Below, piece after piece: positions 26,391-32,000 of a DNA stretch of 32,000 bases. Numbering within the stretch: the first letter of the stretch is position 1; every line of letters begins with the position of its first letter. The position numbers were made by a program, and so were the translations under genes. This DNA comes from Candidatus Nanosynbacter lyticus (lineage in GTDB: Bacteria; Patescibacteriota; Saccharimonadia; Saccharimonadales; Saccharimonadaceae). The notes below the pieces were generated by a model. That model did no database searches, had not been told where the DNA came from, and saw nothing but the letters and a program-made list of their open reading frames with translations. The stretch is from the NCBI RefSeq assembly GCF_030253515.1, contig NZ_CP124549.1:390001-422000 (forward strand), in the 5' to 3' direction.

Positions 26391-26528
26391 GTTTTAGCCC
26401 CTCATAGTCACTAACAATTCTTAACTCTGTTAATTATACATGACCGCGGCCAATATTTCCATACTAAAAACATAAAGCACATGCGCTATAATTGAAATAA
26501 TTAACATAACGCAAGATTGAGGTGTCAT

Positions 26529-27236
26529 ATGCAACAGCAGCCCGAAACTCCAGTAACTCCATCGTCAATGCCGCAGCTAAACCCAGAATTACCGCCACAT
26601 CGTCCGCCAAAGAAAAGTAAGTTATGGCTATGGATTACACTGGCGATTGTCGGCGTGTTGGTGATAGTCGGGGTCATCGTAACAATTATTATTGTGTCGA
26701 ATAGCTCCACTTCTTCAGCTGATACAACAACTTCACGTCAGCGAGCAACCAAGCCTGATAAGAAGAATAATGATAATGAGGAGGATGGAGACAATTGGCA
26801 AGGCTCAACTACGAAGGCCACAAAATGCCTAACGTCTGCAGATTTTCGAAGATCTGGCTATACGCACGTAAAGGATGGCTATTTTGTGTTAGAGAACGGC
26901 AAATTTAACTTTCGTAGCATTCTCTTTAAGCCAGATTCAACGCAGTACCAACGTGGAACTTCCAACGTTGAAATGGCTAAGCTAGGAATGCTTTACAAAT
27001 TTAATACTGACAAGCAATTTTCGATTGAACTGGTCCCCAATGAGACGAGCGAGAAGTCGAAGCTGGCTTTGGAGCGTGCCGATAAGATTAAGCACGATTT
27101 GGTATCTAATGGAATTCCAGAGCGTAAGATTACTGTTTCTGAGCCAACGGTCGCCGATCATGACAATAGCGACGATACGGCCGACGGGCGTGTAACGATT
27201 TATTTCGTTGCACCGCAGAAATGTAGCGAAAAGTAA
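26529..27236 (+). CDS. membrane-anchored protein with a degenerate OmpA/MotB-like C-terminal domain
   Basis: Pro-rich N-terminus and a single TM (LWLWITLAIVGVLVIVGVIVTIIIV). C-terminus SIELVPNETSEKSKLALERADKIKHDLVSNGIPERKITVSEP...DGRVTIYFV resembles the OmpA_C pattern (…LS..RA..V...L...G…NRRVEI). GAGGTG SD before the ATG at 26529. Confidence 0.45.
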   Translation: MQQQPETPVTPSSMPQLNPELPPHRPPKKSKLWLWITLAIVGVLVIVGVIVTIIIVSNSSTSSADTTTSRQRATKPDKKNNDNEEDGDNWQGSTTKATKCLTSADFRRSGYTHVKDGYFVLENGKFNFRSILFKPDSTQYQRGTSNVEMAKLGMLYKFNTDKQFSIELVPNETSEKSKLALERADKIKHDLVSNGIPERKITVSEPTVADHDNSDDTADGRVTIYFVAPQKCSEK

Positions 27237-28587: not shown

Positions 28588-28938
28588 CTAGAACTCCAAT
28601 CCTTCTTGGCGCGCAGCATCAGCCAATGCTTTCAAGCGACCAGCGTACTGGCGGCCGTTGCGATCAAAGACTACTGCGCTAATTTTACTTTTCTTTGCTT
28701 TCTTGGCAATTTCAGTACCAATGGTGGCACATTTTTCGCTCATCGTACCTTTTGCTTTGGTGCCAACGGTGGTTGCGGCAGCTAATGTCTTACCAGCGAC
28801 GTCGTCGATCAGCTGAGCACTAACGTGCATGTTGCTGATGGTGACTGTCAGGCGTGGGTGCTCTGCAGTGCCTGAAACTTTGGCGCGAACGCGGTTTTTG
28901 CGAAGAGCGCGGTTGAGTAATTTCTTGTTTTCAGCCAT
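28588..28938 (-). CDS. rplR: 50S ribosomal protein L18
   Basis: RKNRVRAKVSGTAEHPRLTVTISNMHVSAQLIDD...VVFDRNGRQYAGRLKALADAARQEGLEF. Confidence 0.95.
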   Translation of the reverse strand: MAENKKLLNRALRKNRVRAKVSGTAEHPRLTVTISNMHVSAQLIDDVAGKTLAAATTVGTKAKGTMSEKCATIGTEIAKKAKKSKISAVVFDRNGRQYAGRLKALADAARQEGLEF

Positions 28939-28940
28939 GA

Positions 28941-29480
28941 TTACTTACCTGTCTTTCCTGCTTTGCGCAAAATCTGCTCGTCAGCGTACTTGATACCCTT
29001 ACCCTTGTATGGTTCAGGCTTCTTCAGTGCGCGGATTTCCGCAGCGACTTGGCCGACTTGCTGTTTATTGATACCGCTGACGATGATGGTCATCTTTTCG
29101 TTGGTAACGGTGATGCCCTCTGGGGCTTTGTATTTGACTGGGTGTGAAAACCCGAGCGCCATTTCCAGCTCGTTGTTGCTGGAGCTGACGCGGAAACCGA
29201 CACCATTGACCTCGAGACGCTTCTCGTAGCCCTTGGTAACGCCGATTACCATATTGTTGATCAGCGCGCGTATCAGACCGTGCTGGGCGCGAGCAGTTTT
29301 AGACTCATCCTTCGGATGAACCGTGACGTGTCCGTCTTCGACTTTCACCTCAACCGCTGGCGTGATGAATTGTGTCAATTCACCTTTCGGGCCTTTTACG
29401 ACCACGTCACCAGAGTCAACCGTGATTGTCACACCGGCCGGAATAATCACCGGCAGTTTTCCGATTCGACTCAGACTCAT
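28941..29480 (-). CDS. rplF: 50S ribosomal protein L6
   Basis: MSLSRIGKLPVIIPAGVTITVDSGDVVVKGPKGEL...GYEKRLEVNGVGFRV...PEPYKGKGIKY. Confidence 0.95.
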   Translation of the reverse strand: MSLSRIGKLPVIIPAGVTITVDSGDVVVKGPKGELTQFITPAVEVKVEDGHVTVHPKDESKTARAQHGLIRALINNMVIGVTKGYEKRLEVNGVGFRVSSSNNELEMALGFSHPVKYKAPEGITVTNEKMTIIVSGINKQQVGQVAAEIRALKKPEPYKGKGIKYADEQILRKAGKTGK

Positions 29481-29516
29481 TACTCACCTTTCATGTGATT
29501 TGATATTAACCCTGGT

Positions 29517-29546
29517 ATTTTAGCATGGATTAGGGGTAAAATGCAA
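29517..29546 (-). promoter_or_regulatory. putative promoter directly upstream of rplF
   Basis: Minus strand TTGCAT - 18 nt - (TGc)TAAAAT, then a 36-nt leader with an AAGGTGA SD. Confidence 0.5.
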
Positions 29547-29587
29547 GGCAGACTCTCACCGACCGTGTGCTACATAAATCGCGTTAA

Positions 29588-30079
29588 TTATATACCGTAA
29601 CGTTCTTTTGCGATATTCAGTAGGAGTTCGTATGCCCAACCAACTATCTTTTTCTCGCTTAGCTCCGATAATCTCTTATCGCCATGGAATAGGTTACAGC
29701 GTATAGTATATATAATATCCGCAAGATTTTCTAAATCTAAATCTTCTTCATTCCTAAGATACTTTTTCTTTTCATTTTTCATATTTTTAACACTTAATCT
29801 CTCTTCGGGCTTTGTACTCTTGAAATCCCTGATTATACACTCTCTGTTCGTACTCACATATTCTCCCGCTATGCTTTTGAAATATTCTTTGAATCTATCT
29901 GGCTCTAGATGTTTTTCCGAATACATATTGTAACTACGATTATATGCAGTCCAAAGTATCATGAAACGAATAATCGATCTGTCATCATCATTGAATGTAT
30001 AATTAATAGCATTCTCTAAGCTATTTATATATTCTATGTTTTCCTTTATATTCTTTGCACTTTCTCTTTCTATAGTCAT
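29588..30079 (-). CDS. hypothetical all-helical protein with an Rx4H (HEPN-like) motif; very AT-rich
   Basis: 163 aa. LADIIYTIRCNLFHGDK contains R-x4-H followed by G, as in HEPN RNase families. Helical periodicity throughout. Hand-counted GC is about 25% (29701-29760), against about 57% in rplF (29281-29340). Confidence 0.4.
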   Translation of the reverse strand: MTIERESAKNIKENIEYINSLENAINYTFNDDDRSIIRFMILWTAYNRSYNMYSEKHLEPDRFKEYFKSIAGEYVSTNRECIIRDFKSTKPEERLSVKNMKNEKKKYLRNEEDLDLENLADIIYTIRCNLFHGDKRLSELSEKKIVGWAYELLLNIAKERYGI

Positions 30080-30275
30080 ATCATTTCATTCCTTATATCC
30101 ATAATATAGTGTTTACTCAAGCGTCATACCGCTTCGTATTCATCATTGTAACAGAATAGCAAGCAACCGGTCGGTCAGGCACTAAGCATCAACCCTACTG
30201 ACTAACCGCAAATTATTTTGATAGTTTACTTACCTATAGACATGTATCCTGAGACCATCGTAAGTATGCTAACAT

Positions 30276-30821
30276 ATGCTTATGATCTCAAAATGCCTCA
30301 TCGCAAAAATAAGCTTTGTCGTCTTTTCCGCATCCACGGTGCTACTATATATTTTGGCGCGCAATGGAACGATGACTGCGGTTTTTGGGCCGATGCTAGC
30401 TTATGTTGTATATCTACTCAATTTTGCGCTGCTCATCGCGTCCACACTTTTCTACATCTGGCAGCGCGCTCACAAAGACACGCCGCAGAAGGATCGCTTG
30501 GAGGCGCTCGAGACATATGCGCGACTAGATAATGACGGCCTATTGACCAGTGGCGCGGTAACTATTATCGAGATCGAGGCGGACAGTTTTTGGCGGCTCA
30601 AGGAATATGGCGAGACGATTACTGTGCCTATCAACGCCATGAATCCGCTGCGCCTGCCACCGGTGGGCACGCGGGCAACATTCGCGCCGATTGGTAATAA
30701 GGATAATCGAGCCATCGGCGTGATTACCGAGATAACGAACGGAAGGATGACGGTCGCACCGGCACCGACAACCAAGCCCAGTAGGCCGCAACTCACCACC
30801 AAAACCACGACGTCCAATTGA
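30276..30821 (+). CDS. hypothetical 2-TM membrane protein with a soluble C-terminal domain and T/P-rich tail
   Basis: Helices ISFVVFSASTVLLYILA and AVFGPMLAYVVYLLNFALLIASTLFYIW. No recognisable family. Confidence 0.45.
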   Translation: MLMISKCLIAKISFVVFSASTVLLYILARNGTMTAVFGPMLAYVVYLLNFALLIASTLFYIWQRAHKDTPQKDRLEALETYARLDNDGLLTSGAVTIIEIEADSFWRLKEYGETITVPINAMNPLRLPPVGTRATFAPIGNKDNRAIGVITEITNGRMTVAPAPTTKPSRPQLTTKTTTSN

Positions 30822-31341
30822 GCGGTATCAGCATGAGCAAGGACGCTATCGCTAGCGTGATGTACGCCCCCAGTGCCGGCCGCGTCAGCTGCGGCGCATC
30901 ATAATGATACACCCGCCGCAGCTCATAATAATCCCACAAACGCCACGCACAAATCGTTAATAAAACGGCAGAAATGAGCGACAGCATCCCACTAAGCTCA
31001 AAATGATATGTTTGATTACTAAAGTTAACAACAAACATGAACTCCGCCGCCGCCAAACACGACCACCACCGCTCATCCCGTTTCAATCCCATTACCGCTA
31101 TACAAAATCCCAACGGAATGATCAATCGCACCACCGGTGTGTAGTCAAAAAACAGCTGTGTGTAATATTCAATCGGATATTTATTATTGCCTGCGGCCGC
31201 CACCAGCGTACCTACGCCATAAAACACCGTCAATAACACGACGCCAAACACAAACAGCCGCAATATATCGTTATACAACACGTCTCGCAGTGTGATGACG
31301 TCGGTTTTAGAGGTAGCGGGAAGCTTCAGAAACGGAATCAT
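30793..31341 (-). CDS. hypothetical multi-pass membrane protein
   Basis: About five hydrophobic helices (e.g. LFVFGVVLLTVFYGVGTLVAAA, MLSLISAVLLTICAW, ALGAYITLAIASLLMLIPL). Its 3-prime end overlaps the convergent ORF by 29 nt. Confidence 0.5.
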   Translation of the reverse strand: MIPFLKLPATSKTDVITLRDVLYNDILRLFVFGVVLLTVFYGVGTLVAAAGNNKYPIEYYTQLFFDYTPVVRLIIPLGFCIAVMGLKRDERWWSCLAAAEFMFVVNFSNQTYHFELSGMLSLISAVLLTICAWRLWDYYELRRVYHYDAPQLTRPALGAYITLAIASLLMLIPLNWTSWFWW

Positions 31342-31370
31342 TTTTAGCTACCGTTAGTCCGTGAACACGT

Positions 31371-31390
31371 CCTTATGATTTTTCATAAGG
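31371..31390. other. perfect 8-bp AT-rich hairpin between two minus-strand genes
   Basis: CCTTATGA-TTTT-TCATAAGG. No clear U-tract on the minus strand. Confidence 0.3.
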
Positions 31391-31447
31391 ATATCGTAGT
31401 TTGCGAGGAGGGTATGTGTCAAGGCAACGGAGCGTTTAGCCGAGAGA

Positions 31448-31981
31448 CTACTTCTCTTTCACCTCGCACCAGCCGTTGTTACTGTTAGGGTAGCAGGTGA
31501 TATCAAGATCCTTGCCGGTAAATTTTGTAAAGCCAGAATAGCTTGCTGTACCCCAATCCTTCTTCGTTCCACCACAGCCGACAGAGAATTTAATCTTGTC
31601 GCCTATGACAACAGGTAGATTTTTAATATCAACGACTGACCGGTTGCTAGTTGGAGTAGTTTTCACCCAATCAGATTTTAGTGTTTCCTCATTCGCTCGT
31701 TCTACCCACGCACCGACAAACTCCTCGTCGTTGGCGCAGGTAAATTGCCCGTCAATAGTAACGATGTCCCCCTCTTTAGGTGTAGTCTTTGTCGGACGCG
31801 AGGTTGGTTCTGACGGGGACGGCGTCACGGTTTCAGTGACGCGTACGGTTTGCGTCGCCCGTGGCGTCTCGGTCGTTTGCGGATGCCTGTTCGTCGTGGT
31901 CACGGTAACAGTCGCTGGGGCTGGCTTGGCGTCCAATCCTGACAGACCGCAACCAGAGGCAAACAACGCCACTACGCCCAT
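31448..31981 (-). CDS. putative lipoprotein (T/P-rich linker plus Cys-containing C-terminal domain); N-terminus may lie beyond the window
   Basis: Lipobox-like LFASGC. Linker PAPATVTVTTT...PSPSEPTSRPTKTTPK. The frame stays open upstream of the ATG at 31981 to the window edge (…RPLASF-MGVV…), so the true start may be off-window. Confidence 0.5.
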   Translation of the reverse strand: MGVVALFASGCGLSGLDAKPAPATVTVTTTNRHPQTTETPRATQTVRVTETVTPSPSEPTSRPTKTTPKEGDIVTIDGQFTCANDEEFVGAWVERANEETLKSDWVKTTPTSNRSVVDIKNLPVVIGDKIKFSVGCGGTKKDWGTASYSGFTKFTGKDLDITCYPNSNNGWCEVKEK

Positions 31982-32000
31982 AAAGCTAGCTAGCGGTCGG

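Follow-up and report, generated by a model that had tools for sequence, protein, structure and literature searches.

The question raised by this locus is why a single AT-rich gene lies beside rplF, inside a ribosomal-protein operon of Candidatus Nanosynbacter lyticus, and what its product might do. The gene is a 163-aa open reading frame (ORF) in the window, by which we mean the whole stretch of 32,000 nucleotides analyzed here (contig NZ_CP124549.1, positions 390,001 to 422,000). A first-pass annotation made from the sequence alone had described it as a solitary HEPN-like gene carrying the Rx4H motif of HEPN RNases, possibly acquired horizontally. The comparisons described below identify it as the occupant of a replaceable cassette and its product as a probable HEPN protein of a distinct family, for which a role as an endoribonuclease in genetic conflict is the explanation we favor, with moderate confidence.

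A foreign-looking gene with an invariant signature

The interval 29481–30275 contains a single ORF, 29588..30079 on the reverse strand, here termed allele type A. That it is a real gene is borne out by the ORF list, its homologues and an AF2 (AlphaFold2) model; it starts with ATG, and an AAGGA ribosome-binding site can be read from the sequence approximately 10 nt before the start codon. The IRCNLFHG stretch noted previously was confirmed at residues 126–133, encoded at 29681..29704 (−) with the codons of R127 and H132 at 29699–29701 and 29684–29686, respectively, and represents an Rx4H motif, putatively catalytic, where core helix 3 ends. The gene had also been called the sharpest compositional break of the window, which is correct: among 492-bp segments (mean GC 0.514, sd 0.052) the lowest value, 0.309, was found for the segment starting at 29671. 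The hand-counted GC contents of about 25% for the ORF and about 57% for rplF were in error, the measured values being 32.1% and 52.0%, with 51.5% for the entire window. GC at third codon positions (GC3) was 0.317, compared to 0.575 ± 0.077 (minimum 0.43) for the 36 other ORFs of the window, and the AT bias therefore reaches synonymous sites and codon choice, beyond an amino-acid composition rich in K, E, N, I and Y. The HEPN-like ORF is the strongest compositional outlier of the window, in support of the earlier view of a stand-alone gene of foreign-looking composition.

A homology search returned 37 close homologues in two groups, type A (76–100% identical, 163–169 aa) and type B (43–51% identical, 171–176 aa). 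When a family profile was searched against 1.84 billion cluster representatives with a cut-off of E ≤ 1e-3, the family was found to comprise 947 clusters (50% identity) from bacteria and archaea, mostly stand-alone proteins of 150–175 aa. F39, R127, N129, H132 and G133 formed invariant columns in alignments of 71 and 90 diverse members, with Y124, L130, F131 and K135 likewise invariant in the 90-sequence alignment, and R127-x4-H132 was invariant in alignments A1, A2 and A3. The pattern R[CN]N[LFY][FLI]HGxK was present in 250 of 256 collected sequences (median length 164 aa, with approximately 33 residues after the motif). The residue after the arginine, Cys128, was nearly invariant, being replaced by asparagine (RNNLFHG) in about 10 of the 250, and the asparagine at +2 was invariant. 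As the signature is kept to this extent, the motif is not the chance match that had been considered possible; R-x4-H-G is the most conserved feature of the family, which answers the question posed earlier of whether R and H are conserved in homologues.

A scan of 185,579 species (one genome each) for the peptide pattern RCNLFHGxK gave 271 stretches, 145 of which encode confirmed relatives, and the best 80 were kept as loci. The hosts among the loci included members of the candidate phyla radiation (Saccharibacteria, Nomurabacteria, Paceibacterota and Daviesbacteria), other bacteria (Proteobacteria, Treponema, Bacteroidota, Firmicutes, Verrucomicrobiota, Planctomycetota, Acidobacteriota, Chloroflexota and Cyanobacteria) and archaea (Bathyarchaeota, Woesearchaeota, Hadarchaeota and Thermoplasmatales). 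The distribution of the family is rare and patchy, and in nearly all loci the GC content of the family gene was below that of its flanks.

Relation to the HEPN superfamily

HEPN domains are built from two alpha-hairpins with a variable insert separating helix 2 from helix 3, and their Rx4-6H motif extends from the end of helix 3 into the loop toward helix 4 (PMC3710099). An AF2 model based on 90 diverse homologues (predicted local distance difference test (pLDDT) 93.7, predicted TM-score (pTM) 0.90) comprised helices at residues 3–28, 31–53, 116–131 and 140–161, with an insert at 59–107 consisting of two helices and a beta-hairpin (96–107). Motif residues 127–132 were placed at the end of the helix spanning 116–131, and the predicted order of helices is the canonical HEPN layout. 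The protein had been described as all-helical, and the prediction agrees with this except for the short hairpin. A first model based on 27 close homologues (pLDDT 65) gave uninformative Foldseek matches and was superseded by the 90-sequence model. Using the latter, the top-ranked Foldseek match in the PDB was a Legionella HEPN toxin (8xeh_B; E = 1.0, probability 0.54, TM-scores 0.39/0.45), five further chains of the same toxin were found within the top 25, and the top-ranked match in BFVD was a phage MAE_28990-like HEPN protein (E = 0.85).

The individual family members were also compared to defence-system and protein-family profiles. In PADLOC, the window protein weakly matched the C-terminus of DzbB (positions 285–331 of 341, E = 0.006), and 28 of 71 family members matched DzbB positions ~269–333 of 341 (best E = 1.7e-6), the match covering the motif-bearing C-terminal 50–65 residues of the members. 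The Pfam family MauJ was matched by 7 of the 71; for P0105, P0125 and P0235 the match spans the family domain and scores 18–25 bits, against a gathering threshold of 28 bits. MauJ was furthermore the sole profile match of the family consensus (11.2 bits, E = 0.7). Both P0105 and P0125 carry RNNLFHG, P0105 touches an Abi PHROG (E = 0.025), and one homologue carries the NCBI name ‘HEPN domain-containing protein’. The 421-aa protein P0126 has a more elaborate architecture, with a separate MauJ-type domain (residues 123–235, E = 2.9e-13) N-terminal to the family domain (residues 290–414, with RCNLFHG), and the MauJ-type domain has an F..F...W helix and the sequence RNAIAH at positions equivalent to those of the family. 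RNAIAH is itself an Rx4H motif. With two Rx4H domains per chain, P0126 recalls two-HEPN nucleases, and it suggests that Pfam MauJ is HEPN-like. An hhalign comparison of alignment A3 with the MauJ-type domain of P0126 aligned the helix-2 F..F...W alone, at a probability of 3%, and was discarded; a homology search for a MauJ alignment found nothing, and PDB sequence searches with three family profiles and P0126 gave no relatives.

Judged from sequence and predicted fold together, the window protein probably belongs to the HEPN superfamily, in which it represents a distinct family outside current family models.

A replaceable cassette upstream of rplF

The window spans the alpha and spc clusters (rplQ, rpoA, rpsD, rpsK, rpsM, secY, rplO, rpsE, rplR and rplF). 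The fixed right-hand neighbour of the HEPN-like ORF is rplF, encoding ribosomal protein L6 (28941..29480 (−); Pfam Ribosomal_L6, E = 5e-40), from which it is separated by a 107-nt spacer. In the Saccharibacteria, the family gene was found directly upstream of rplF in all eight of the loci analyzed (L001, L005, L008 and L021–L025) as well as in L101, with an almost invariant spacer of 103–107 nt. L101 is a near-identical strain, encoding an identical HEPN-like protein and sharing 99.3% DNA identity over the 3.4 kb to the window end. The first-pass annotation had placed the gene where rpsH should be, which is misleading: in L101 an intact rpsH, along with rpsN, lies 3.1 kb upstream of the HEPN-like gene, projecting to ~33225–33626 in window numbering and thus past the window end. 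Five unannotated ORFs (158, 179, 202, 182 and 181 aa) and the HEPN-like gene separate rpsH from rplF in L101; the operon is interrupted between the two, and rpsH is not replaced. In type-B genomes, NUDIX, His_Phos, CYTH and pheS genes are found upstream of the HEPN-like gene instead of rpsH.

The extent of the exchangeable unit was given by two metagenomic loci, L105 and L152, which match window positions 30196–32000 at 92% and 28901–29548 at 96%, and in which 1126 bp with an unrelated 321-aa gene replace 29549–30195. With common flanks and a swapped middle, these loci therefore define a cassette of 647 bp (29549..30195 (−)), comprising the promoter region, the 5′ untranslated region (UTR), the ORF and a 39-nt 3′ tail (29549–29587). 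The 321-aa protein had no relative in the PDB.

The two loci came from a metagenome search with the rplF promoter-like spacer as query, which gave 68 loci in total (L105–L172). The HEPN-like gene was present in 16 of these (5 type A and 11 type B), while 22 had a single membrane-protein gene between rpsH and rplF and nine had NUDIX-side arrangements. In five loci a 199-aa gene abuts the rplF promoter, representing an empty site approximately 710 nt shorter than L001. A further 15 carried other occupants, including proteins of 321, 314, 282–286 and 240 aa and a 101-aa glutaredoxin-like protein, and for one the upstream sequence was too short for classification. The slot has fixed flanks and at least eight alternative occupants. 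Furthermore, the HEPN-like gene is disrupted in two loci, by an internal deletion of ~150 nt and a frameshift in L023 and by a frameshift in L155, both of which are possibly assembly errors. The gene is accessory, exchangeable and dispensable, and its presence/absence pattern, the cassette replacement and the deeply diverged alleles described below strongly support the horizontal acquisition proposed earlier.

Two side observations concern the same slot. A gene of 199/200 aa with a weak alpha/beta-hydrolase match (L001:7232–7831 (−); also in L002, L004, L008, L021, L024 and L025) is found upstream of the HEPN-like gene, in divergent orientation, in roughly half of the loci; its occurrence is independent of allele type, and it is missing from the window, which has 30167–30281 instead. 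In addition, 29 of the 68 metagenomic contigs end within ~110 nt after the rplF promoter pattern, at the start of rplF. Assemblies seem to break at this junction of slot and operon, which fits co-occurring strains with different occupants.

Two deeply diverged alleles

The two allele types differ far more from each other than do the genomes in which they are found. In comparisons of type A with type B genomes, rplF showed a nonsynonymous divergence (dN) of at most 0.01 and a synonymous divergence (dS) of 0.12–0.15 (dN/dS about 0–0.08), compared to a dN of 0.40–0.52 and a dS of 1.0–1.4 (dN/dS 0.3–0.45) for the HEPN-like gene, which is under purifying selection. With dS nine-fold over that of the flank, the alleles are therefore much older than the genomes carrying them, and the divergence points to recombinational import or a long-maintained polymorphism; fast protein evolution as the sole cause is excluded by the synonymous divergence. 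The divergent block, 29630–30113, is nested inside the cassette, with its ends ~35 nt ahead of the start codon and ~13 codons short of the stop. An 80-nt conserved segment forms its upstream border, and the 3′ end of the gene, which is conserved, forms its downstream border together with the spacer. Mosaicism is visible in the type-B sequences, P0019 being a chimera of B and A.

The 80-nt segment, conserved between both allele types, contains TGtTACAAT (30145..30153 (−)), an extended −10-like element read from the sequence as the putative promoter of the HEPN-like gene; it was not reported by a consensus promoter scan, which requires a −35 element. A second promoter-like element, TTGCAT-N18-TAAAAT preceded by TG (29517..29546 (−)), belongs to rplF, lies in the fixed right flank outside the cassette and is nearly identical in all loci, with or without the HEPN-like gene. 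No terminator-like site was found between the HEPN-like ORF and rplF. RNA elements in the spacers were considered and dismissed, with no Rfam family, terminator or unusually stable fold, as was a 17-nt inverted repeat on either side of the ORF (29555–29571/30162–30178) as a terminal repeat, which is at about chance level and not conserved in L001 or L025. A 9-codon frame (MMNTKRYDA-stop) at 30115–30146 (−) overlaps the putative promoter; in allele B it lacks the stop and joins the main ORF in frame, giving long forms of 193–227 aa. These forms span the conserved promoter and 5′ region and are probably start-codon miscalls.

Genomic contexts of homologues

Neighbour genes from approximately 87 loci were clustered all against all, and no conserved partner gene was found outside the rplF block of the Saccharibacteria. 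Adjacent MNT-type partners had been reported as absent, and none was present among the neighbours in the window, L001, L005, L008 or L101. Several homologues are closely packed into operons unrelated to one another: between trpG and trpD (L012 and L017), upstream of rpsB and after prfA and an 88-aa ORF (L013), flanked by a 228-aa ORF and ftsX (L015), and between 96-aa and 85-aa ORFs (L019).

Other homologues lie in restriction-modification (R-M) and DUF262 settings; a search of neighbourhoods, including for defence islands, had been proposed in the first-pass annotation. On a Campylobacterota plasmid (L102), the gene order is GmrSD_N(DUF262), helix-turn-helix (HTH)-peptidase M78, DUF4411, X (the family gene), hsdS and hsdR. 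A DUF262 gene and a DNA methylase are found near the homologue in L103 and L104, and a DUF262 gene lies immediately 3′ of it in L091. Type I HsdM, identified by its match to EcoR124II M (E = 2e-34), is encoded within ~5 kb in eight loci and directly adjacent in L059 and L089. Defence-type neighbourhoods were thus found for at least 12 of ~85 loci, which by a rough estimate is well above the expectation for a random gene.

Two further arrangements were observed. A Candidatus Paceibacterota metagenome-assembled genome (MAG) encodes an in-frame fusion of the family domain with a complete epoxyqueuosine reductase QueH (L050:5893–6927; QueH part matching PDB 7lc5, E = 2.7e-34). QueH acts on tRNA. 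Either the fusion marks a functional tie to tRNA, or the family gene was inserted just upstream of queH and lost its stop codon. In Dialister, Anaerolineales and Bacteroidaceae MAGs (L047, L060 and L079) a common block was seen with a ~235-aa ORF, a ~520-aa ORF, X and a ~970-aa ORF, the family gene being located at about 5950–6400 in L047 and L079; on the short contig of a Clostridia MAG (L077), the ~970-aa neighbour alone was seen. The 520-aa and 970-aa proteins had no sequence relatives in the PDB, and the block may be an unrecognized multi-gene system.

Proposed function and alternative explanations

We favor, with moderate confidence, a role in genetic conflict: the gene, on a minimal mobile cassette that is lodged just before the rplF promoter in a clade of Candidatus Saccharibacteria, would encode an HEPN-type endoribonuclease that has no partner. 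The four-helix core would present R127 and H132, together with N129, G133 and K135, where helix 3 ends, and R127 and H132 could provide the site of a metal-independent endoribonuclease; in line with other HEPN enzymes, this site would probably be a composite of both subunits of a homodimer. Recognition of the target or trigger may fall to the parts that differ between alleles, namely helix 1, the loop that follows helix 2, the beta-hairpin and the post-motif loop. RNA would then be cut upon a trigger, in a manner resembling abortive infection or a toxin, by analogy with the relatives linked to R-M and DUF262 genes and with the C-terminal module of DzbB. RNase chemistry, dimerization, trigger, target, phenotype and a role in defence are steps of this explanation that we infer.

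Several results weigh against it. The window protein had no significant match in Pfam, NCBIfam or PHROG, HEPN_Apea was touched by a lone member of 71 (E = 0.007), and all Foldseek matches were non-significant (E ~1, TM-scores below 0.5); of the searches called for earlier, that for fold ranked HEPN toxins first, and neither fold nor profile gave a significant HEPN match. The residue right after the Arg of the Rx4-6H motif is polar (N/D/H) as a norm in HEPN proteins (PMC3710099), in contrast to the Cys found here, and the conserved positions of helix 2 are F39, W43 and N47, with no conserved acidic residue (Ex3[KR]). What holds of the earlier assignment as an HEPN-like Rx4H protein is thus the invariant R-x4-H-G and the helix order; the Cys and the missing profile or fold match count against it. 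Furthermore, the ~87 loci offered no antitoxin, sensor or other conserved partner to account for tolerating a potentially toxic RNase, and many homologues are located in housekeeping operons and not in defence islands. The window itself holds no hsd or other R-M genes and gave no significant tblastn match with two GmrSD_N (DUF262) proteins. Finally, plasmid and phage collections gave no tblastn match to the family and IMG/VR viral contigs no confirmed relative, and carriage on such mobile elements was rejected on these grounds.

One alternative is a non-catalytic helical protein, in which the R/N/H/G/K cluster binds a ligand or partner (e.g. in an immunity or anti-defence protein or in a sensor of nucleotides) and the likeness to HEPN is superficial or ancestral. 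In its favor, every link to HEPN families is below significance, the protein lacks both the acidic residue of helix 2 and the canonical polar residue that follows R, and some HEPN domains are known to be non-catalytic, substrate-binding modules (PMC3710099). Set against this are the strict invariance of R and H, the Rx4H spacing and its expected structural position, which are the hallmark of catalytic HEPN domains, along with the minority of members having the canonical RN (RNNLFHG) and the second Rx4H domain of P0126, which resembles known two-HEPN nucleases. We consider a non-catalytic protein unlikely. An HEPN-fold protein with a physiological role in RNA processing or binding (e.g. of tRNA or a ribosomal-protein transcript), and none in conflict, would fit the constant position 103–107 nt upstream of rplF in the Saccharibacteria loci analyzed, with no terminator between, the homologues between trpG and trpD and upstream of rpsB and ftsX, and the fusion to the tRNA-modifying QueH in Paceibacterota. 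Such a role is hard to reconcile with a gene that 52 of 68 loci lack although they are otherwise similar, and of which two copies are disrupted. Its alleles are extremely divergent and mosaic, its codon usage is atypical and the family is rare and patchily distributed among phyla; moreover, the promoter-like element of rplF is there regardless of the HEPN-like gene. This makes the physiological role improbable in our view.

A toxin of a toxin-antitoxin-like module, persisting by addiction next to an essential operon, would require an antidote that has gone unrecognized, such as an RNA or 5′-UTR element in the cassette, the product of a variable neighbour gene or that of a gene elsewhere in the genome. 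HEPN toxins are usually neutralized by a partner, as in type VII HepT-MntA and in RnlA-RnlB (PMC11586414 and PMC8266594), and candidates for an antidote can be pointed to: small upstream ORFs are tightly coupled to some distant homologues (88 aa in L013, 96 aa in L019), and the 80-nt upstream segment is conserved with both alleles. The coupled ORFs are, however, not homologous across loci, the upstream segment folds no better than shuffled sequences (z = 0.59), matches nothing in Rfam and contains no repeats, the 199-aa neighbour comes and goes independently of the HEPN-like gene, and frequent clean loss or replacement argues against strong addiction. An addiction module accordingly seems improbable to about the same degree as a physiological role. 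The idea of a chance ORF in an AT-rich spacer appeals to the few GC-rich stop-free constraints in AT-rich DNA and to the lack of an annotated family match, and is effectively refuted by hundreds of homologues across phyla, a dN/dS below 0.5 and the high-confidence fold prediction, along with the AAGGA ~10 nt before the ATG; we give it practically no weight.

Beyond the window, a broader proposal can be made tentatively, although we regard it as doubtful in its full form. The R[CN]NLFHGxK proteins may constitute an uncatalogued clade of single-gene HEPN ribonucleases that lack a dedicated antitoxin and have a catalytic module in common with DzbB. They would disseminate as minimal promoter-plus-gene cassettes, entering fixed slots at operon boundaries of essential genes (rplF, rpsB, trpD, queH) of reduced-genome bacteria, with deeply diverged, recombining alleles kept by phage- or host-driven diversifying selection and tRNA as a likely target.

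Saccharibacteria are episymbionts with genomes of ~0.8 Mb (the contig encoding the present protein is 823,929 bp long), and to our knowledge few defence systems have been described for them; a full-text literature search for ‘HEPN’ together with ‘Saccharibacteria’ gave no paper. If the RNase activity is true, the HEPN superfamily would gain a family of ~950 clusters with a sharp nine-residue signature, the uncharacterized second protein of Dazbog a candidate effector module, and the Saccharibacteria one of their few candidate genes for defence or conflict. Whatever the function, the rpsH/rplF break is a clean natural cassette slot with two ancient alleles, which makes it valuable for work on recombination and on variation among strains of uncultured candidate-phyla-radiation bacteria. 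It also accounts for the breaks of metagenome assemblies at this point.

Neighbouring genes and other variable positions

The left flank of the cassette in the window is formed by a divergent ORF, 30276..30821 (+), encoding a 181-aa membrane protein with two N-terminal hydrophobic segments according to hydropathy, at a distance of 196 nt from the HEPN-like ORF. Both the two-transmembrane (2-TM) neighbour and the 196-bp spacer agree with the first-pass annotation. The protein had no family match in library scans, and in other strains the 199-aa gene or different genes occupy its position. The ORF is part of an island between rpsH and rplF that covers 30276–32000 in the window and continues to ~33200 outside it (L101:2944–5804). 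Along with the 2-TM protein, this island encodes a 182-aa protein with approximately four hydrophobic segments and one protein whose N-terminus resembles that of a lipoprotein (MGVVALFASGCG). In many of the related metagenomic loci, all that lies between rpsH and rplF is a relative of the 182-aa protein with 38% identity to it.

A second break in the ribosomal-protein supercluster was observed in the gap between secY and rplO, where 26517–27236 (+) encodes a 239-aa protein with a single TM segment, a GC content of 0.45 and weak OmpA/MotB-like matches at the C-terminus. Type-B relatives have an unrelated 353-aa gene on the opposite strand at this position, which may be another variable slot.

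Comparison with known systems

The window protein was compared to the known systems that it recalls, starting with those from which it differs in a defining feature. HepT-MntA and related HEPN toxins are similar in size and helical fold, as reflected in the Foldseek matches (8xeh_B, 8xdj and 8yuf, with 7ae6_B and 6m6w_G for the first model), and their Rx4H is located ~30 residues from the C-terminus, as in the window protein. HepT-MntA has an adjacent MNT nucleotidyltransferase, in contrast to the window gene and its counterparts in L001, L005, L008 and L101. HepT furthermore carries a Tyr in its RX4HXY motif, whereas the window protein reads RCNLFHGDK, with Asp at H+2; as this position (H-G-D) lacks the Tyr, control by type VII AMPylation cannot apply. 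The Dazbog protein DzbB (PADLOC PDLC03836) matches the motif-bearing end of the window family with its C-terminus, but is approximately twice as long as the window protein, and the match is confined to that C-terminus and does not amount to full-length homology. Its DUF262 partner (DzbA-type) has no counterpart in the window; DUF262 genes are found near homologues in L091, L102 and L103. For MauJ (PF17419), some members gave full-length matches below the threshold, whereas the window protein gave none and the consensus stayed below 28 bits, and MauJ is encoded in methylamine utilization clusters, a context unrelated to the window locus.

PrrC and RloC share an R-M location with some of the homologues, those in L059, L089 and L102 being beside or inside hsdM/hsdS/hsdR, and the placement of homologues inside or next to hsd genes suggests a back-up role to restriction comparable to that of PrrC/RloC. 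These enzymes have an ABC-ATPase domain, whereas the window protein is a single domain of 163 aa lacking it and has no R-M neighbours. Membership of the window protein in HepT-MntA, Dazbog, MauJ or PrrC/RloC was accordingly rejected, as it departs from the defining features of each.

The closest agreement was with the HEPN RNases as a class (PMC3710099; Abi2/AbiD-F, ApeA, MAE_28990/MAE_18760 and integron-cassette HEPN), which have the same invariant Rx4H followed by G and the four-helix core predicted here, with helices 2 and 3 separated by an insert and the motif where helix 3 ends. The window family differs from the Pfam HEPN families in giving no significant profile match, in the Cys after the Arg and in having no acidic residue in helix 2, and the Saccharibacteria gene differs from known HEPN RNases in being solitary beside rplF, outside any defence island. 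Patchy distribution and low GC are shared with the small HEPN RNases that stand alone or are embedded in R-M loci, as is the placement of some homologues in type I R-M operons, and it is these RNases that the window protein is most like. New here are the uncatalogued family, its unusual RC-N signature and the swappable cassette at a break in a ribosomal operon; the biology behind them is probably familiar in kind.

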